Positions 3,673 through 25,450 of a DNA stretch of 32,000 nucleotides are shown here, piece after piece (position 1 is the stretch's first letter; each line of letters starts with the position of its first letter). Under the pieces are notes generated by a model, which saw nothing but the letters and a program-made list of their open reading frames with translations, was not told the origin of the DNA and did not search any database. Made by a program: the position numbers and the translations under genes. The stretch lies in contig NC_009483.1 of the NCBI RefSeq assembly GCF_000016745.1, positions 3,150,001 through 3,182,000 on the forward strand, in the 5' to 3' direction. Source of the stretch: Geotalea uraniireducens Rf4 (GTDB taxonomy: Bacteria > Desulfobacterota > Desulfuromonadia > Geobacterales > Geobacteraceae).

Positions 3673-4773
3673 GTGAAAACAGAGATTATAAAATGGACGC
3701 TCCGTCTTCTCCCGGCGCTCGCCCTGCTCGCCGCCGTTTCCATGGCCTCTGCCGCGGAAGCGGGCGGACCGGGCTACGCATACGGCGGCATTACCGGGAA
3801 AAGCGGCAACTGCCTGGACTGTCACGGAAATGCGAAAAATATCGGCGACCGGTATTTCATCGACCCGGTGAAATACGAACACACCAATCACGCCAGAATC
3901 GGCTGCCCCGCCTGCCACGATTCCATCGGCGGTGGACATCCAGGCGACCAGCTTGTCCCGGCCAAAGCCGGTTGTCTTGAGTGCCACGGCGACACGGCCG
4001 AGGAATATGCCCGGACCGCTCATGCGGCAAAAGCTGCCTGCAACGACTGCCACAACCCGCACCTGGTGCACGCCCCCAACGAAATATCAGGGCAGGAGAT
4101 GAACAGGATGTGCGCCACCTGCCACAACAACGAAGGGATGGTTGCAAAGCACGCCAGGTGGCTGCCGCAGGCCGACCTCCATCTCGGCATGCTCCCCTGC
4201 ATCACCTGTCACACCGGATCGAAAAATTACGTCATCACCCTTTACATCATCAAACGGGAGGGATACAAGCGCAACGGAGAGTTTAAACTGGCCGGCCACG
4301 CAGAGCTGGAAAAAATTGCCGGAGCTAAAGGGATCCGCTCCATGATCGACGGTAACGGCGACAACTACATCTCCCTCGCCGAACTGGGCCTGTTCAACCG
4401 CAACCCCGCTTACAAGCATCTGCGTCTGCAAGGGGTGCTGACCCCGGAAACAGTGACCCACAACTTCGAGATCCTTGAAAACCGCTGGGACTGCACCTTC
4501 TGCCACGCCTCCGGCCCCGACGCCATGCAGACCAGTTCTATCGCCCTGCCGGATAAAAGCGGCGCCTTCCAGCGGGTCGCAGTGGAGAAAGGGGCGGTTC
4601 TCGACACGCTCAACGGCCCGCCCGATTTCTATCTGACCGGGGCCTCCCGCAACGCATCGCTCAACAAGATCGGCCTGGTCATCATTGCCGGCGGCATGGT
4701 CATGCCGGTCGGACACGGCTTCCTGCGTTTCCTGACGCGGAAGAACAGAAAAGGAAAGGAGCACCAGTCATGA
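3673..4773 (+). CDS. Heptahaem c-type cytochrome with signal peptide and C-terminal membrane anchor (CbcA-like)
   Basis: GTG start after GGAGGA. Seven CXXCH motifs: CLDCH, CPACH, CLECH, CNDCH, CATCH, CITCH, CTFCH. N-terminal signal sequence, C-terminal hydrophobic helix (IGLVIIAGGMVMPVG) and an EF-hand-like loop DGNGDNYISLAE. Confidence 0.9.
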   Translation: MKTEIIKWTLRLLPALALLAAVSMASAAEAGGPGYAYGGITGKSGNCLDCHGNAKNIGDRYFIDPVKYEHTNHARIGCPACHDSIGGGHPGDQLVPAKAGCLECHGDTAEEYARTAHAAKAACNDCHNPHLVHAPNEISGQEMNRMCATCHNNEGMVAKHARWLPQADLHLGMLPCITCHTGSKNYVITLYIIKREGYKRNGEFKLAGHAELEKIAGAKGIRSMIDGNGDNYISLAELGLFNRNPAYKHLRLQGVLTPETVTHNFEILENRWDCTFCHASGPDAMQTSSIALPDKSGAFQRVAVEKGAVLDTLNGPPDFYLTGASRNASLNKIGLVIIAGGMVMPVGHGFLRFLTRKNRKGKEHQS

Positions 4774-6036: not shown

Positions 6037-6100
6037 GTAGGGGCGGGGTCACCCCGCCCCTACACCCCGCCCCTACACCCCGCACACCCCGCCCCTACAC
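6037..6100. repeat. GTAG-type REP: perfect palindrome GTAGGGGCGGGGT-C-ACCCCGCCCCTAC followed by tandem ACCCCGCCCCTAC units
   Basis: Read directly. The palindrome spans 6037-6063. Further full or partial ACCCCGC(CC)CTAC copies run to about 6100. Confidence 0.8.
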
Positions 6101-6759: not shown

Positions 6760-6864
6760 TTCGGGGGGGAGGATGGGGATGGTCATGGCGGTTGCACCTG
6801 AAGAAGAAAGAGATACCACGAACACTGCGTTTCTGTTATAGTTTTGCCATCAAAGGAGATGACC

Positions 6865-7116
6865 ATGAAAAGCGCGTCAGTCACCGTCAAACTGCCGGAA
6901 CCGGTCAAAACACGTCTGGACCGTCTCGCCAAGGCCACACATCGGAGCAGGTCGTCTCTCGTTTCGGCCGCTGTCGAAGAGATGCTCTCCGTGGAAGAGT
7001 GGCAGATTCAGGGAATCAGGGAAGCTTTGCATGAGGCCGATTCCGGCAACCTGATTGCCCACGAAGAGATCAAACTTGAATGGGAGACACGGCGTGCACG
7101 TCAAGTGGACAAGTAA
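6865..7116 (+). CDS. RHH antitoxin (ParD/CopG-like)
   Basis: SVTVKLPEPVKTRLDRLAKATHRSRSSLVSAAVEEML is an RHH motif. AAGGAG at 6853-6858 favours the ATG at 6865; 6859 is also possible. Confidence 0.75.
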   Translation: MKSASVTVKLPEPVKTRLDRLAKATHRSRSSLVSAAVEEMLSVEEWQIQGIREALHEADSGNLIAHEEIKLEWETRRARQVDK

Positions 7117-7378
7117 GGCACGTCGTGACTTGTACAGCGTCGATGGTTACATTTCACAGGACAACCCCACCGCTGCTGCAGAAACGGTTCTGAAAATCAT
7201 TGCCGCCGTAGAATCGCTCTCCCAGCACGCGGAAATGGGGCGGCCCGGCAGAGTCCCCGACACTCGGGAACTGGTCATTCCCGGTCTCCCCTTTATAGTC
7301 CCCTATCGCATCAGCAGTTCCACAATCGTCATCCTTCGTGTCTACCACACATCCCGCAAGTGGCCAGATCAGCTTTAA
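7094..7378 (+). CDS. RelE/ParE-family toxin
   Basis: WTSKARRDL...I..DNP.AA...GRPGRVPDTRELVIPGLPFIVPYRI...IVILRVYHTSRKWP is a ParE/RelE signature. A GTG at 7094 overlapping the antitoxin 3' end is the plausible start. Confidence 0.8.
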   Translation: MHVKWTSKARRDLYSVDGYISQDNPTAAAETVLKIIAAVESLSQHAEMGRPGRVPDTRELVIPGLPFIVPYRISSSTIVILRVYHTSRKWPDQL

Positions 7379-7446
7379 CCCCGAGATCTCGACAAACACT
7401 GGCTTTGCCGATTTCTTAGCCCTCTTTGAAAAAGGGGGGTGAAACC

Positions 7447-7475
7447 TGGGGAATCCCCACGCATGTGGGGAACAC
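7447..7475 (-). repeat. Solitary type I-E CRISPR repeat with a degenerate 3' end
   Basis: The minus strand reads GTGTTCCCCACATGCGTGGGGATTCCCCA. The first 21 nt fit the I-E consensus GTGTTCCCCRC-N4-GYGGGGAT with the CCCCAC/GTGGGG stem. The usual GAACCG tail is replaced. Confidence 0.65.
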
Positions 7476-7767
7476 GCGCCCCGCCCGGCTGACCGGAGGC
7501 GTAAAGCCGCACCCCGGCCTCACCGATCCAGACGAGGAGGCACCCCACCCGGCTGGCCAGCACCACCGCATTGTGGGAGACCCGCGTCCCCGGCTCCAGC
7601 ATGAGGCAGGCAACGCCGCCGACGGGGACATGGGTGCGGACCCCGGTCTTGTCCACCACAACGAATGCGCCGTCGAGCACATCAAGGTTCCCCTTCTCAA
7701 CGAAGAGGACCGAGAGGCGGTCTTTGATGGGGATCGGTTTCAATGGGGGAAGAATGGGTTCGGTCAT
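7476..7767 (-). pseudogene. cas1: Type I-E cas1, N-terminal ~98 codons only
   Basis: MTEPILPPLKPIPIKDRLSVLFVEKGNLDVLDGAFVVVDKTGVRTHVPVGGVACLMLEPGTRVSHNAVVLASRVGCLLVWIGEAGVRLYASGQPGGAR is co-linear with E. coli Cas1 (YgbT) residues 1 to about 95, as recalled. Similarity stops at GGAR and the ORF then reads through the repeat. Confidence 0.85.
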
Positions 7768-7798: not shown

Positions 7799-8013
7799 GT
7801 AGGGGCGGGGTCTCCCCGCCCGGATTCTGATTCTCCGGGGTCTCCCCGCCCGGATTCTGATTCTCCGGCAAAAGCGGGCGGGGAAACCCCGCCCCTACGT
7901 CATCATTGGCAAACAGGGGGCGGGGTGATGACCCCGCTCGTAGGGGCAATCTCCGTGTGGTTGCCCCGATTCTGGTGTTATAACGGCGGGCACCCACACG
8001 GGGGTGCCCCTAC
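7799..8013. repeat. Cluster of GTAG-type REP hairpins (BIME-like) downstream of the RAYT gene
   Basis: Multiple units were read directly, including:
- GTAGGGGCGGGGTCTCCCCGCCC.
- A 2x tandem GGATTCTGATTCTCCGGGGTCTCCCCGCCC.
- GGGCGGGGAAACCCCGCCCCTAC.
- GGGCACCC-ACAC-GGGGTGCCCCTAC.
Segment 7799-7925 is a paralogue of 8219-8360. Confidence 0.8.
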
Positions 8014-8708
8014 GTTGGATATTCATCGTCTTCTGTCCATTTCGATGGATTGAAATGGATGTATTCCCGGATGCCGGCCAATTCCGCTTCGTCGCGGATG
8101 ACGCGCTCGAAATAATTGCGTTGCCAGACCGGCACGCCCGGATTGTCGCGCATGAAGTTGATCTGCTTCGTCGTCTGGTATTTGAAAAAACCAACAATCT
8201 GCCCAAGCGTCGGTTTCCGTAGGGGCGGGGTCCTCCCGCCCTGATTCTCCGGGGTCCTCCCGCCCAGGTTCTCCGGGGTCCTCCCGCCCAGGTTCTCCGT
8301 GGTCTCCCCGCCCAGGTTCTGATTTTCCGGCGAAAGCGGGCGGGGAAACCCCGCCCCTACGTCATCATTGGCAAACACAGGGCGGGATGACCCCGCCCCA
8401 ACATCGTCATTGGCAAAAACAGGGCGGGGGAACCCCGCCCCTACGATGCAAATGATGCCTTGGAAATGGTTGGGCATGACGAAGTATTCATCCAATGCCA
8501 CATTCGGAAATTTCCCCGGCAATTTTACCCACCATTCCGCCACCATCCGCCCCGCATCGTTCAGGCGCATTTCACCATCCAGAATATCGCCGAACAAACA
8601 TTCCCGCCCCTGCGCGCATATCGTGACGAAATACGCGCCGTTCGAGGAATAATCGTATTCCCGCAGACGGATGGAACGACGGTGGTGAATGTCAGGGTTA
8701 TAGGTCAT
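8010..8708 (-). CDS. RAYT-like / IS200-type Y1 (HUH) transposase with an in-frame REP-derived insert
   Basis: The N-terminus YNPDIHHRRSIRLREYDYSSNGAYFVTICAQGRECLFG and C-terminus WQRNYFERVIRDEAELAGIREYIHFNP are typical of COG1943/Y1_Tnp proteins. The HUH position reads MPNHFQG. The centre (8219-8444) consists of REP-like repeats translated as VGAGFPRPVFANDD and ENLGGRTP units. Confidence 0.8.
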   Translation of the reverse strand: MTYNPDIHHRRSIRLREYDYSSNGAYFVTICAQGRECLFGDILDGEMRLNDAGRMVAEWWVKLPGKFPNVALDEYFVMPNHFQGIICIVGAGFPRPVFANDDVGAGSSRPVFANDDVGAGFPRPLSPENQNLGGETTENLGGRTPENLGGRTPENQGGRTPPLRKPTLGQIVGFFKYQTTKQINFMRDNPGVPVWQRNYFERVIRDEAELAGIREYIHFNPSKWTEDDEYPT

Positions 8709-8746: not shown

Positions 8747-8984
8747 TTTCGCGTAGCAGGCGGGCGCTTCAATACGGGAAGATCGCCGAGGCCATGCGCA
8801 CCATGTTTCAATCCTCGCCCGCCATTGAAGGCGGGCGCTTCTCGTCCAGTTTACGTTCGTAGTCATGGTAGCCGAGGTTTCAATCCTCACCCGCCATTGA
8901 AGGCGGGCGCTTCCAGTAACCTGTTGCGCATCATGCTGTCTCCTTTCGTTTCAATCCTCACCCGCCATTGAAGGCGGGCGCTTC
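8746..8984 (-). CRISPR. Mini CRISPR array: 3 full repeats plus 1 degenerate terminal repeat, 3 spacers (type I-C/I-B-like repeat ending ATTGAAAC)
   Basis: 37-nt repeats lie at 8948-8984, 8877-8913 and 8805-8841. The minus strand reads GAAGCGCCCGCCTTCAATGGCGGG(T/C)GAGGATTGAAAC. Spacers are 34, 35 and 34 nt. The degenerate copy is at 8746-8770. A leader of about 170 nt (8985-9158) adjoins cas2. Confidence 0.85.
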
Positions 8985-9158: not shown

Positions 9159-9449
9159 TCAGACAATCAACGGCTCCTCGAAAAATATCGTGCGACTCAA
9201 ACCGTAGGTCTCCACATGATCATCCCTAGGTTCAGTAAGGCGGTAAAGCCGCAGATTATCCTCTTCTTTGACGATTTCTCTCAGAAGTTTCCGGCGCAGT
9301 TCCTCAAACTTCATCTCATTCACCTGGCACTCGAACACCGACTTCTGCACCCGTTGGCCGTAGTTCTTGCATACCTGTGCCACCCTGCGCAAACGTTTCC
9401 GCCCTTTTGGTGTTTCAGTGTTCACGTCATAACAGACGACTATCCACAT
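9159..9449 (-). CDS. cas2: CRISPR-associated endoribonuclease Cas2
   Basis: [43 protein letters not shown]...LRLY is the canonical Cas2 ferredoxin-fold signature. It lies next to the leader and array. Confidence 0.9.
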
Positions 9450-9472
9450 GGTTACCCCCGATCAATCTGAAG

Positions 9473-9584
9473 AAATCCCCCTGAATCCCCCTTTCTCAAA
9501 GGGGGACTTTTTCTGTGCCCACCATTCCCAAAGGGGGACATTTTTATTCCCCCCTTTACGAAAGGGGGGTCAGGGGGGATTTCT
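9473..9584. repeat. Left copy of the ~110-bp direct repeat flanking the DUF559 gene (G/C hairpin element)
   Basis: Contains AAATCCCCCTGAATCCCCCTTTCTCAAAGGGGGAC...CCCCCCTTTACGAAAGGGGGGTCAGGGGGGATTT. By eye it is about 90% identical to 9957-10082, apart from one ~15-nt indel. Confidence 0.8.
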
Positions 9585-9941
9585 GAGCCCTTCTTGAATT
9601 GCATCAATAATCCGCTGTATCACAGCATCCGTATCACGCAATATCTGATAATTGTCGAACCTCAGAACTCTTAACTCTTCTCCGACGAGAAACCTGTCCC
9701 GCTCCTCGTCTCTCCTTGCATTTTCCGGTTCCCGATGTTGACTGCCATCAGCTTCAACCACCAATCCAGCACCGGGAGCAAAGAAGTCCACGATATAGGG
9801 TCCAATCGGCTTTTGACGATAAAACTGCACACCAAGCAACTGTTTTCCTCGTAGATGTGACCATAATCGTTGCTCAGCCTCAGTCATATTTTTTCGAAGT
9901 TCACGGGAGGCATCCTTCAGTACTCGACCATATTCTCGCAT
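9570..9941 (-). CDS. DUF559 endonuclease-domain protein (Vsr-like fold)
   Basis: LRKNMTEAEQRLWSHLRGKQLLGVQFYRQKPIGPYIVDFFAPGAGLVVEADGSQH...RDRFL...G..VLRF is a DUF559 signature. The ATG at 9941 is preferred. The longer ORF to 10013 starts inside the flanking repeat (PPLRKGDLGGF). The stop lies inside the left repeat. Confidence 0.85.
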   Translation of the reverse strand: MREYGRVLKDASRELRKNMTEAEQRLWSHLRGKQLLGVQFYRQKPIGPYIVDFFAPGAGLVVEADGSQHREPENARRDEERDRFLVGEELRVLRFDNYQILRDTDAVIQRIIDAIQEGLRNPP

Positions 9942-9956
9942 GAACGGACCTCTTTC

Positions 9957-10082
9957 AAATCCCCCTAAATCCCCCTTTCTCAAAGGGGGACTTATTCTGT
10001 TCCCACCACTCAAAGGGGAACTTTTTATGTTTCAGGGATTATTTTTATCCCCCCTTTACGAAAGGGGGGTCAGGGGGGATTT
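9957..10082. repeat. Right copy of the direct repeat flanking the DUF559 gene; contains the cas4 stop codon
   Basis: AAATCCCCCTAAATCCCCCTTTCTCAAAGGGGGAC...CCCCCCTTTACGAAAGGGGGGTCAGGGGGGATTT. The cas4 stop is at 10070-10072. Confidence 0.8.
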
Positions 10083-10696
10083 AACACAAACAAGTCACGG
10101 GCTGCCTTCCGGCTCCTCCCCTTCTCCCCCACAACATGCGGCAGGCAAGACTCTTTCAGAGAACAATCCTTGCAACGCTTGTCGTTCACCGGCGGCGGAA
10201 GATGACAATTCGCGATCATCTCATGAGTGGCGGCGACGACCTCCTCCAGATGCGCCCGCATGGCATCGGTAAATACAATCTCTTTCCGCTCCCGCGAACC
10301 ATGCCAGTAGAGTGCCCCTTTCTCCACATTTATGTTGAGCATCTCTTCCAGGCAGACCGCCTGGGCCAGGAGCTGCAACGCCTCATGATGTCCGGCGCGA
10401 TGACGGCCCGACTTGTACTCCACCGGATAGGGAACGTCACCGTGGAACTCCACCAGATCGGCCTTGCCGACCAGCTTCAACCGGCAGCACCAGATGGGCA
10501 AGGCACGTTCATAGCGCACTCCAGCAATCTCGTGGGAGGATTCCGCGTCAACATTCTCATGTACGTCGCGGCCGCGCATGGTGTAGAGGTTCTCGTGAAA
10601 GGTCTGCTCCACATGGATCAGGGCGCACTGGCGCGGGCAGTAGCTGTAATGCTCCAGGGCGGAGATCATGATGGGGTCGGAGGGTTCAGGTATCAT
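10070..10696 (-). CDS. cas4: CRISPR-associated exonuclease Cas4 (RecB-like nuclease with 4-Cys cluster)
   Basis: N-terminal YCPRQC with C-terminal CKDCSLKESC gives the 4-Cys Fe-S motif. RecB-type motif GKADLVEF...YPVEYKSG. About 208 aa, which is full-length size. The last codons (LNPP-stop) derive from the flanking repeat. Confidence 0.88.
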   Translation of the reverse strand: MIPEPSDPIMISALEHYSYCPRQCALIHVEQTFHENLYTMRGRDVHENVDAESSHEIAGVRYERALPIWCCRLKLVGKADLVEFHGDVPYPVEYKSGRHRAGHHEALQLLAQAVCLEEMLNINVEKGALYWHGSRERKEIVFTDAMRAHLEEVVAATHEMIANCHLPPPVNDKRCKDCSLKESCLPHVVGEKGRSRKAARDLFVLNPP

Positions 10697-10789
10697 CGAA
10701 ACAAAACTCCTTTGGGTTGAACTATTGCAAATTTTGCAACAGCTGAGTGCGGTTCAAATCCCTTCCTGCAACTACCAAATTGCGCAGAC

Positions 10790-11140
10790 GGTATCTGCGT
10801 AATTGGCCAAGTCAGGTAAAACAAACGCATCTGTTCGACATTGCGTTTGGAAAACCCGCGTCCAAACCGGCTGGTCAAGTCATGGGCCAGCCGTTCAATA
10901 TCTTTTCTCCATATGCTGCACGTTCGCGGCCACCCTGTTCGCTCTCGACTATCCGGCGTCCAATTTCCCAATAAGTGGCAGTCATGATGGAGTTCACCGC
11001 CCGCGAGGAGGCCCGGCGGGCCTCCTCCAAAAGGCTTACGACACCTGAGAGCATGGCTTCGTAGTCGGTTACGGGCGGGTGATGTGCGGATTTCTTTTTC
11101 TGCTGGTCATGAGAAGCTCCGGTGGCTAATTTCTTTAGTA
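10790..11140 (-). pseudogene. DUF1016 (YhcG-type PD-(D/E)xK nuclease) N-terminal fragment, frameshifted and truncated
   Basis: My own translation gives two pieces. One frame reads DYEAMLSGVVSLLEEARRASSRAVNSIMTATYWEIGRRIVESEQGGRERAAYGEKI. The next frame continues ERLAHDLTSRFGRGFSKRNVEQMRLFYLTWP. Together they match the DUF1016 N-terminal domain pattern. No nuclease half is present. Confidence 0.6.
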
Positions 11141-11204: not shown

Positions 11205-11724
11205 TAGGGGCGACACTGCCGTTGAAAGCCAATCACTGTCCGTCAGCGAACTAAACAAAGATTTCCCGCTGAAATCCATTATTAAAGGATACAGGTTCCT
11301 GTGAATTGATATCTGACTCAACAAAACCGACATCATCAATAAATTTTTGCACGACATCCTTGAAATCAGGAACGTCATCGTGAATGTAAGGGTTTGTGTC
11401 GCTCTTCCATGCTGCTTTGTCTGGCATTCCCTTATGGTGGCCGTCAATTGCAATTGATGCTTCATGTATTTTGAATTTACTCGCATATCCGGCTCCCCAC
11501 GAAGCATGAGGCACACTGCCACGACGTCCGCCGTTTTCAAGATAGTTCTGAAATGCCTGTTGGTACTTGCCGAGGTCATGCAATAGACCCGTCATTTTGA
11601 AAATGGGTTTGTATTCCCGACGACAGGCAAATGATTCCACAAGATTAGCGGTTTCATGCAGATGCTTTGCTAGAAGGTGCTTATCTTTGTTATCGTTTTC
11701 CGAATGGGCATAATAATCCGTCAT
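11205..11724 (-). pseudogene. cas3: cas3 remnant: HD nuclease domain only, frameshifted, helicase part deleted
   Basis: YAHS...KHLLAKHLHETANLV...GLLHDLGKYQQAFQNYL...IAIDGHHKG are HD-domain motifs. The next HD motif, SLFSSLTDSDWLST (11220-11261), is in a different frame. Similarity ends at a GTAGGGGCG REP fragment (11204-11220). No Walker A or DEAH motif follows. Confidence 0.75.
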
Positions 11725-12182: not shown

Positions 12183-12314
12183 GGTTCGTTTGCCGGGTTT
12201 TCCTTGTCCATCGTCCATCTCAGCGGTTTAGGATTTAGATAGTTGAAGTGACAAGCTGTTTCCGATATGCTAGATTGTGTTCGCAATTATGTTGAACAAA
12301 AAGGGACAATGCGT

Positions 12315-12533
12315 ATGCATACCAAAAAAGAAGTGTTGGCCGAAGCCCTGAATCTCCCGCCGATAGAGCGAGCCGAGCTGATCGAGGAGCTCCTCACCAG
12401 TTTCGAGTTCCCCGACCGCCGACGCCTCGACCGGCTCTGGGCTGAAGAAGCGGATGATCGCATAAAGGCATTTAAACAGGGTGAATTTGAAACGATCCCG
12501 ATGGAAAAAGTCTTCGCCAAAATCAATCGGTGA
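12315..12533 (+). CDS. Addiction-module antitoxin (putative addiction module component family)
   Basis: KKEVLAEALNLPPIERAELIEELLTS...LWAEEADDRIKAFKQGE is typical of this small antitoxin family. Its stop overlaps the toxin start region. Confidence 0.7.
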   Translation: MHTKKEVLAEALNLPPIERAELIEELLTSFEFPDRRRLDRLWAEEADDRIKAFKQGEFETIPMEKVFAKINR

Positions 12534-12541
12534 ACAAGTCA

Positions 12542-12847
12542 ATGAAAATCAGGTTTTTCCCATCGGCTGAAGCTGAGCTTCAAGACGCCGTCAACTACTT
12601 CAACAGCCAATGCGAAGGCCTCGGATTCGAGTTCGCTGCGGAGATACAGCGAACGATCGAACGCATAATCAGCAATCCAGAAGCATGGACGAAGCTCTCC
12701 GTTTATTGCCACCGGTGCCGCACCAAACGTTTTCCCCATGCCGTGATTTACTACATCGAAAACAACCTGCTCTTCGTTGTCTCCATCATGCACATGAAAC
12801 GCGAGCCAAACTCCTGGCGGACGTACTTGCCGCCTCACAAGCAATAA
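12542..12847 (+). CDS. RelE/ParE-family (plasmid stabilisation type) toxin
   Basis: MKIRFFPSAEAELQDAVNYF......FAAEI...IERI..NPEAW.......RCRTKRFPHAVIYYIENN.LFVVSIMHMKREP. A GTG at 12530 is an alternative start. Confidence 0.8.
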   Translation: MKIRFFPSAEAELQDAVNYFNSQCEGLGFEFAAEIQRTIERIISNPEAWTKLSVYCHRCRTKRFPHAVIYYIENNLLFVVSIMHMKREPNSWRTYLPPHKQ

Positions 12848-14149: not shown

Positions 14150-14241
14150 ACCATCAACCATCAACCATCAACCATCAACCATCAACCATCAACCGCCGAC
14201 CGCCTTTACCACCGACCGCCGACCATCGACCACCGACCGCC
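14150..14241. repeat. Heptanucleotide microsatellite: 6 perfect CCATCAA units followed by diverged CCGCCGA/CCATCGA/CCACCGA units
   Basis: Perfect units at 14151, 14158, 14165, 14172, 14179 and 14186. Degenerate units continue to about 14241. The region is intergenic. Confidence 0.8.
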
Positions 14242-25320: not shown

Positions 25321-25450
25321 CCCCCAGTGTTTCCTTTCCCCCCAGTGTTTCCCCCCAGTGTTTCCCCCCAGTGTTTCCCCCCAGTGTTTCCCCCCAGTGT
25401 TTCCCCCCAGTGTTTCCCCCCAGTGTTTCCCCGACCCCCAGTGTTTCCCT
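25321..25450. repeat. Intergenic tandem array of 9 CAGTGTTTCC cores; the central seven cores are spaced exactly 13 nt apart (unit AGTGTTTCCCCCC)
   Basis: The core A residues are at 25326, 25344, 25357, 25370, 25383, 25396, 25409, 25422 and 25440. The array is flanked by direct repeats GTCAATGTGGAGATGCGACACTAT (25249-25272) and GTCAAAATGTAGACGCGACACTAA (25453-25476). Confidence 0.9.

Follow-up and report, generated by a model that had tools for sequence, protein, structure and literature searches.

In the window analysed here, a stretch of 32,000 nt from Geotalea uraniireducens Rf4 (NC_009483.1, positions 3,150,001 to 3,182,000), a gene for a small DUF559 endonuclease lies between cas4 and cas2 and is bracketed by hairpin-rich palindromic repeats. 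Our analysis supports the view that the hairpin element and the DUF559 gene form one conserved unit. Taken as a whole, our best explanation, of moderate confidence, is that window positions 9473-10082 represent one local instance of a unit that occurs widely, with the proposed history and homing-like mechanism described below. The pairing of DUF559 with a repeat suggests an undescribed selfish-DNA system resembling that of repetitive extragenic palindromic (REP) sequences and REP-associated tyrosine transposases (RAYTs). The features concerned are as follows.

9473-9582, minus strand: repeat copy A, a palindromic doublet of 110 nt (L module 9550-9582, middle, R module 9473-9505)
9957-10082, minus strand: repeat copy B, a palindromic doublet of 126 nt (L module 10050-10082, 60-nt middle, R module 9957-9989)
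9550-9989, minus strand: canonical unit of R module, spacer, DUF559 gene and L module, a form present at 41/68 metagenome loci and 8 genome loci
9570-9941, minus strand: DUF559 (Vsr-like PD-(D/E)XK) endonuclease gene, 123 aa (PF04480, 1.2e-32)
9942-9956, minus strand: spacer from the R module to the DUF559 start codon, bearing the Shine-Dalgarno-like GAAAGAGG (read from the sequence)
10070-10696, minus strand: cas4 (type I-C), intact (Pfam Cas_Cas4, 6e-26; TIGR00372, 1.9e-34)
9159-9449, minus strand: cas2, intact (Pfam Cas2, 5e-26; TIGR01573, 6.8e-20)

Each doublet consists of two inverted modules of ~33 nt, and each repeat copy has its own terminal inverted repeats of 33-35 nt. The R module, upstream of the gene, reads CCCCCTTT-nnn-AAAGGGGG-(2-6 nt)-GGGGGATTT, and the L module, downstream, is its reverse complement, AAATCCCCC-(3-5 nt)-CCCCCTTT-nnn-AAAGGGGG. 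The module ends are AAATCCCC / GGGGATTT and (AAGT)CCCCC / GGGGG(ACTT). The R module ends a few to ~20 nt 5' of the start codon, while the L module overlaps the last codons and the stop. All module detectors were hand-made regular expressions. An earlier note on this DNA had named hairpins and a tail within two homologous repeat copies judged ~90% identical. The hairpins matched six times in the window against 0.01 expected, and the TCAGGGGGGATTT tail twice against 0 expected. The two copies aligned in ungapped blocks of 93% identity (55 nt) and 90% identity (48 nt) with a 16-nt indel between them; the first base of their homology falls exactly at AAATCCCCC and the last exactly at GGGGGGATTT. 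As single-stranded DNA, copy A folded at -30.8 kcal/mol (z -4.2) and copy B at -29.7 kcal/mol (z -3.9), both as a closed stem with internal hairpins. No Rfam family matched the modules at gathering or E-value thresholds, and blastn against plasmids gave one trivial 37-nt match. In the databases queried for exact protein sequences, neither DUF559 nor cas2 had a record.

The description of the element as direct repeats flanking DUF559 holds for the window but not as a general design: what is conserved is R-gene-L, in which the gene stands between two modules in inverted orientation. Both window copies are L-middle-R doublets, and each side of DUF559 thus bears a second, outer module. The window looks like a direct repeat because each flank holds a full doublet, which is the case in a subset of loci only (L041, L085, L093 and some metagenome loci; L numbers denote fetched loci).

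Seen from the gene, the link with the modules is near-obligate. DUF559 loci were sampled from metagenomes with two catalytic-core peptide patterns, the repeat not being used, and the best 80 loci (47-61% identity, one clade) were kept. An R module ended within 120 nt upstream of the gene, mostly at 0-30 nt, in 59/76 assessable loci, and an L module lay over the 3' end in 53/72; both were present in 41 of the 68 fully assessable loci. The background on the same contigs, more than 600 nt from the gene, was 7 R and 6 L modules in 157 kb, or ~0.5% per window of comparison. Against this rate the binomial P is ~1e-117 for R and ~1e-107 for L. The statistical co-occurrence that the earlier note proposed to check is therefore strong, in agreement with its claim that the hairpin element and DUF559 make up one unit. 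On the DUF559 contigs, modules were rare in the coding DNA that flanks the gene. Conservation among the metagenome loci was confined to the hairpins, with none outside them, and the median R-to-start spacer in the relatives was 13.5 nt.

The proteins themselves carry the same signature. C-termini encoded by the module (..KSPLAPLS-stop, ..NPP-stop, ..IPPDPPLPKGG) were found in at least 93 of the best 120 protein homologues (55-82% identity), and representatives of 50%-identity clusters bore the same read-through peptides at both the N- and C-terminus. The R and L arms were more alike within a unit than between units (0/5000 permutations). Of the genome blocks listed for the module pattern (at least 120 matched), 8 encode a DUF559 relative, and the gene abuts modules in all 8. 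Modules also stand in tandem, all facing the same way: L154 (588-922) has six R modules spaced ~61 nt apart, L325 (3-166) has four that are ~41 nt apart and lie just upstream of a DUF559 gene, and L004 has a further such array.

Seen from the modules, the picture is different: they are far commoner without DUF559 than with it. The exact degenerate module pattern matched at least 120 genome stretches. Among the matches listed were Geobacteraceae, Desulfuromonadaceae, Desulfobaccales, Dehalococcoidia, Thermoanaerobaculia, Absconditabacterales, Planctomycetota and Elusimicrobia, although the labels of metagenome-assembled genomes (MAGs) may be wrong, together with the isolate genomes Geobacter argillaceus and Algoriphagus confluentis. 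None of the loci listed came from the source genome of the window. A looser pattern, with a free hairpin loop and a wider linker, matched at least 120 stretches of IMG/VR viral contigs. The 120 genome blocks listed held 253 modules, arranged as 60 L-middle-R doublets, 40 R-spacer-L forms (spacer 10-24 nt) and only 5 R-gene-L units. Solo doublets stand in intergenic DNA in Desulfuromonadales and several other phyla. The spacers of solo R-spacer-L forms, which might be remnants of the 5' leader of the gene, were similar to the R-to-start leader in length (15.5 nt compared with 13.5 nt), and a Shine-Dalgarno-like motif was present in 20% compared with 35%.

One MAG, CBDUYN01, accounts for at least 17 of the 120 blocks listed (L002, L014, L024, L026, L030, L033, L034, L039, L065, L069, L073, L098, L101, L110, L112 and L113 among them). 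Most of these blocks carry near-uniform L-middle-R doublets of ~110 nt, often followed by a second hairpin, CCGGCGGAC-GAAG-TCCGCCGG, and no DUF559 gene was found in the sampled blocks. The set looks like a recent burst.

This abundance bears on two other readings. The modules could be an independent family like REP sequences or MITEs (miniature inverted-repeat transposable elements), moved by another enzyme such as a RAYT or IS200-like transposase and accumulating between genes, with DUF559 as a passenger or a favoured landing site that has no biochemical tie to them. Most modules are indeed solo, only 8 of the 120 blocks listed hold DUF559, modules adjoin many other genes too, and a RAYT-like open reading frame (ORF) lies 1 kb away in the window. 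We nevertheless consider this reading unlikely. R and L stand at fixed orientation and distance in a link that is near-obligate on the gene side, no other gene family among the neighbours is bracketed in this way, and distant DUF559 clades have modules of their own. Moreover, the RAYT-like gene of the window goes with a different, GTAG-tagged repeat.

Alternatively, the modules could be cis-acting expression elements of DUF559 (an operator, an mRNA stabiliser, a translational control or a terminator) with nothing mobile about them, the solo copies being relics or serving unrelated host functions. R does keep a short, constant distance to the start codon and a ribosome-binding site falls in between, L provides the stop codon, and the two arms could pair in mRNA. 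However, the sense-strand hairpins are not followed by T-runs; a role as terminator was rejected, terminator-like matches being found on the antisense strand only. Solo doublets with a tight spacer of 10-24 nt greatly outnumber the genes, the genomic contexts are very diverse, and the window differs by presence and absence from its relative L202, described below. The at least 17 near-uniform doublets of one MAG, which look like recent amplification, also speak against a purely regulatory role, and we regard such a role as improbable.

The DUF559 protein, which like the Cas4 of the window is identical to a G. uraniireducens protein, was compared with known nucleases. It scored 112.4 bits against PF04480 (curated cut-off 20.6), while NCBIfam PRK09767 matched at 1e-18, under its equivalog cut-off. 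A profile built from 56 homologues found PDB 3HRL (N. gonorrhoeae NGO0050) at 2e-29 and, weakly in sequence, the catalytic domain of I-Bth0305I (3R3P) at 0.008. In a fold search with the AlphaFold model (pLDDT 86, pTM 0.82), 3HRL gave a TM of 0.89, and the match to 3R3P was clear (TM 0.78, probability 1.00), followed by weaker matches to the Vsr-like domains of PvuRts1I/AbaSI and to Vsr. Across the 56 sequences F53, E63, D65, H69 and D78 are invariant and D52 nearly so. Because E63-x-D65 and H69 are invariant and D52 almost so, the window protein is probably an active nuclease. Profile scans of the window proteins gave no Y1_Tnp or RAYT match for DUF559. PADLOC gave only marginal matches, to nuclease domains of DpdF and of a methyl-directed restriction enzyme, and assigned no defence system.

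The genomic setting has the traits of a selfish gene. The nearest ORFs flanking the 80 metagenome genes, 122 in all, matched 119 different Pfam families, most of which have housekeeping roles (carbamoyl-phosphate synthase, succinyl-CoA ligase, topoisomerase and hydrogenase, for instance). DUF559 was co-oriented with its upstream gene in 50/64 loci. A search for promoters gave no match within the unit of the window, whose ribosome-binding site is placed between R and the ATG. Two diverged DUF559 copies stand within 1.5 kb in L100, and short-read contigs repeatedly end in a module. Module ends coincide with stop codons of cas4 in the window, cas1 in L202 and hsdS in L041 and L085; insertion at host stop codons as a rule was nonetheless rejected, the enrichment being weak (17% of module ends against 11% of random positions). 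An integron cassette (ORF plus attC) was rejected as well, since the module ends are unlike attC cores (RYYYAAC / GTTRRRY), the bracket is inverted and the contexts are scattered and housekeeping; no search of the window was aimed at intI.

Target-site duplications, another check proposed earlier, were not found: in three configurations (L-middle-R, R-spacer-L and R-gene-L), direct repeats of 2-8 nt showed no excess over shuffled controls. A MITE or insertion sequence (IS) of the DDE type is therefore unlikely. DUF559 sits in the spacer position of a doublet, and empty R-spacer-L forms (10-24 nt) also exist. An all-vs-all comparison of the flanks of the fetched loci gave only the window with L202/L203 as an empty/filled pair, and no orthologous empty/filled pair at one doublet was present among these loci.

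The comparison with L202 concerns the fate of cas1. As the earlier note had claimed, cas4 and cas2 are intact and cas1 is missing between them, and gene calls and Pfam/TIGR profiles agreed on this. The gene order on the minus strand is cas4, DUF559, cas2; the window gene calls and profile scans found no cas1 in the cas4-cas2 interval, and the cas4-cas1-cas2 set is hence incomplete. Elsewhere in the window, cas1 survives only as a type I-E fragment of 99 residues (7375-7767, minus strand). The window also lacks cas5, cas8c and cas7, and of cas3 just an HD fragment is left. Because cas1 and all effector genes are missing, the locus is unable to acquire spacers or to interfere alone.

The final three codons of cas4 (NPP) and its stop come from repeat copy B, while the final codons and stop of DUF559 fall in the L module of copy A. 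The translations of both thus end in the same repeat-encoded ...NPP-stop, as had been noticed before. The further claim that the DUF559 ORF begins inside the other repeat copy was not upheld. It followed from a mechanical ORF call (9570-10013, minus strand) with a TTG-extended start inside copy B, whereas the homologues all begin MREY/MLEY, which places the true start at the ATG at 9941, preceded by GAAAGAGG.

The Logan contig L202 has a Cas4 91% identical to that of the window, flanks at 89-95% and the same histidine-kinase neighbour. Its type I-C order is intact, with cas3, cas5d, csd1, cas7, a RAYT-like ORF, cas4, a four-helix-bundle gene and cas1, followed by a solo L-middle-R doublet, cas2 and a CRISPR array. 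The relative with cas4, cas1 and cas2 all in place, which the earlier note suggested looking for, therefore exists, with a small gene and a doublet added. The stop codon of the L202 cas1 overlaps AAATCCCC. Window 9582-8877 aligned with L202 10115-10822 at 88.8%, and the 3' flank CTTCAGATTG.TCGGGGGTAACCATG is common to both. The window agrees with L202 over the 25 nt between doublet and cas2 ATG, which makes the resident doublet of L202 the orthologue of copy A. Farther upstream, window 12132-11216 aligned with L202 1287-2182, and the window has no match to L202 2183-8012.

Compared with L202, ~1.5 kb comprising the four-helix-bundle gene and cas1 is replaced in the window by copy B and DUF559. 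The left breakpoint is the cas4 stop: on alignment of the cas4 3' end with its orthologues, these end in ..ARDLFV[IV]-stop and the window in ..ARDLFVL+NPP-stop. Since L202 keeps both cas1 and a doublet before cas2, cas1 was probably deleted by recombination between the resident doublet and a doublet arriving with DUF559. The middles of copies A and B are closer to each other than to the L202 doublet, as could result from gene conversion or from a crossover close to the R end. Two earlier claims thus need adjustment. The integrase gene is gone, but it was not excised exactly, the lost segment having also held the four-helix-bundle gene in L202. Gene and repeat boundaries do coincide, but copy A pre-existed between cas1 and cas2; on this reading the boundaries are neat because recombination took place between repeats and not because cas1 was targeted.

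It could also be argued that cas1 was lost by ordinary deletion during general decay of the locus, with the repeats unrelated and DUF559 arriving separately. Decay is evident: the locus has lost cas5, cas8c and cas7 entirely and cas3 for the most part, another cas1, of type I-E, stands truncated close by, and the gaps are occupied by pseudogenes and toxin-antitoxin pairs. Such a deletion would nevertheless have to hit a module end with nucleotide accuracy at both breakpoints, at the cas4 stop on one side and at the left edge of a pre-existing doublet on the other, and leave cas4 and cas2 intact; moreover, deletions classically arise between direct repeats such as these, of 110-126 nt. We accordingly find this account quite improbable. 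As another route at the cas locus, a circular gene-plus-doublet intermediate may have been involved.

Small selfish or accessory genes repeatedly occupy the junctions of type I-C operons in the relatives. L202 (7343-9005) has a RAYT-like ORF of 191 aa, homologous to the window ORF at 8010-8708, between cas7 and cas4, and the product of its gene between cas4 and cas1 is a four-helix bundle (23S rRNA IVP). A ParE toxin-antitoxin pair stands between cas4 and cas1 in L204 (5900-7540), and another small ORF follows cas4 in L347 (4668-4862). In the same stretch of L204 a DUF559 unit also lies between cas7 and cas4, read as a Cas4 fusion, while L348 has a doublet directly after cas4 (4630-4757). Beyond its CRISPR array L202 carries a second, orphan cas4 3' fragment (10924-11014, ..CSLRESCLPRVVGEKGRSRKAARDLFVV-stop), which is nearer to the C-terminus of the window cas4 than L202's own cas4 end is.

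The history that we favour would start from an ancestor like L202, with cas4, a small gene, cas1, a solo doublet and cas2. A DUF559 unit with a flanking (downstream) doublet would have landed at the cas4 stop codon, and homologous recombination between the incoming and the resident doublet would have deleted the interval including cas1. As for the mechanism of spread, we infer that DUF559 is mobile and that the nuclease acts on the modules. The protein would recognise module doublets and nick or cut them. A dimeric nuclease could bind the two half-sites of an empty doublet (~16 nt apart) and cut between them, which would be expected to give the geometry seen, with a 10-24-nt spacer in empty doublets that is close to the 13.5-nt median R-to-start distance. 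Repair of the cut doublet from a gene-bearing copy would then copy DUF559 into it and split the site, in a homing-like manner. The modules may also serve as recombination substrates.

Several points weigh against this interpretation. About a fifth to a quarter of the sampled DUF559 genes have no detectable module on a given side, and the metagenome sample, the best 80 loci from two peptide patterns, represents a single clade. There is a single with/without comparison, that of the window with L202/L203, from which the direction of gain or loss is deduced. Because a PD-(D/E)XK hydrolase cannot rejoin DNA, host repair must be assumed. Homing accounts for the spread of the gene and not for solo doublets, whose multiplication would need nick-induced repair or template switching at the hairpins. 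Finally, a crude seed-and-extend search found no bracketing repeat at the DUF559 genes of E. coli, N. gonorrhoeae, Sinorhizobium, Photobacterium and Methylobacterium.

Other clades do have repeats of their own. For example, in replicons of Azospirillum, Sphingomonas, Deinococcus, Pseudanabaena and Synechocystis, and in viral contigs (L326-L331), DUF559 genes at 35-48% identity stand between inverted repeats of other sequence, each made of a GC-rich hairpin and a box; their lengths include 44 nt (L326), 79 nt (L329) and 40 nt (Pseudanabaena). Given that distant clades show varied repeats or none, DUF559 is often though not always paired with repeats, and the sequence of these follows the clade of the protein. 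The DUF559 family is very large, with 23,223 clusters at 50% identity with E <= 0.001, and 9,614 with E <= 1e-10.

With respect to known systems, the analogy with RAYT/REP drawn in the earlier note fits the architecture. Like REP sequences and their doublets (REPINs), the modules are short GC-rich hairpin repeats, abundant between genes and arranged as inverted doublets; a small associated gene is bracketed by inverted copies, most copies are non-autonomous, and the repeat sequence varies with the protein clade. Unlike RAYT, an HUH/Y1 transposase, DUF559 is a Vsr-like PD-(D/E)XK hydrolase (PF04480), with no covalent intermediate or RAYT-type strand transfer. The modules lack the GTAG/CGTC tag of REP sequences, and one module variant is nearly unchanged across several phyla.

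The catalytic fold is shared with I-Bth0305I (Vsr-like / EDxHD family, PDB 3R3P), whose N-terminal DNA-binding region DUF559 lacks. As with free-standing homing endonuclease genes, a small selfish nuclease gene lies between host genes, co-oriented and without its own promoter, and leaves no target-site duplication. It stands amid a palindromic doublet of which empty R-spacer-L forms exist elsewhere, as a homing target might. The gene differs from them in having no intron or intein and in its putative target, a multicopy repeat rather than a unique gene. The (sub)terminal hairpins and short non-autonomous derivatives are reminiscent of IS200/IS605 elements, palindrome-associated transposable elements (PATEs) and MITEs, and the lack of target-site duplication of IS200/IS605; unlike in these, there is no TnpA or DDE transposase, and the sole ORF between the arms is the 120-aa nuclease. 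The window agrees with the type I-C CRISPR-Cas locus of L202 in its repeat type, in cas4 and cas2 and in the neighbours that lie upstream, and departs from a type I-C adaptation module in missing cas1, along with all effector genes.

A six-copy conserved intergenic sequence of G. bemidjiensis, Gbem_R5001-R5006, with the consensus AAGTCCCCCTTTGCGAAGGGGGATTAGGGGGATTTC, has been tabulated (Aklujkar et al. 2010, PMC2996986, table S6). This consensus is the R module, listed there without structure, doublet organisation or a link to DUF559. Surveys of PD-(D/E)XK nucleases group DUF559 with Vsr and I-Bth0305I, and flanking repeats are unmentioned in the passages searched. The literature searched on DUF559, PF04480, ycjD, IPR007569 and Vsr-like nucleases, mostly outside the subscription journals, gave no link to repeats or mobility, which is in line with the earlier remark that no mobility mechanism is established for DUF559 genes.

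We tentatively propose, as a possibility that we would not yet bet on, that DUF559 proteins serve as dedicated nucleases for palindromic-repeat systems that form a second class, independent of RAYT, with clade-specific modules, homing-like spread and repeat-mediated rearrangements. If so, each DUF559 clade would recognise its own module and live in its doublet, across many phyla and viruses, and the cas1 deletion of the window would be one such repeat-mediated rearrangement. DUF559 is a large nuclease family of unknown function, and a conserved DNA partner supplies a directly testable substrate and a rationale for its scattered, multicopy genes. A second enzyme class would be added to the REP/RAYT model of a nuclease paired with a hairpin repeat, and a cross-phylum intergenic repeat family that breaks short-read assemblies would be explained. 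Such repeats could remodel operons with nucleotide precision, as where a CRISPR integrase was removed and its neighbours were left intact.

Two further features belong to the CRISPR remains of the window.

8805-8984, minus strand: short CRISPR array of three CRISPR-DR9 repeats (52-57 bits against a gathering score of 45; Rfam RF01322), with a degenerate copy further on
11251-11724, minus strand: cas3 remnant, HD domain only (Pfam HD / Cas3_HD)

Between the cas3 remnant and cas4 lies a frameshifted DUF1016 (PDDEXK) pseudogene (10693-11054, minus strand). Upstream of its DUF559 gene, L058 has a flank 74% identical to window 10933-11075, a stretch that overlaps this pseudogene. The degraded cas region has a toxin-antitoxin pair on either side, at 6844-7378 and 12267-12847 (both plus strand); their contents are a ParE toxin (Pfam) with an overlapping upstream antitoxin-like ORF and an Unstab_antitox/ParE-like pair. 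The type I-E fragment at 7375-7767 comprises the N-terminal 99 residues of Cas1 (TIGR03638, 6.6e-31), and its match stops just upstream of a degenerate hairpin, CCCCCTTTTTCAAAGAGGG (7420-7438). It is a second broken cas1 in the window and possibly adjoins a module remnant too.

A classical REP/RAYT pair lies ~1 kb from the DUF559/module pair. Its ORF (8010-8708, minus strand) partially matched the REP-associated tyrosine transposase model NF047646 (3.9e-12, under cut-off) and is invaded in frame by GTAG-tagged GC-rich palindromes (GTAGGGGCGGGG...CCCCGCCCCTAC) and tandem repeats of 24/42 nt. These repeats run on at 7806-7990, the region as a whole spanning 7800-8708 (minus strand). Elsewhere in the window, 13-nt repeats of CACCCCGCCCCTA occur at 6050-6100, heptamer repeats ACCATCA/ACCGCCG at 14150-14241, and 7.5 perfect tandem copies of the 13-nt TTTCCCCCCAGTG at 25335-25432.

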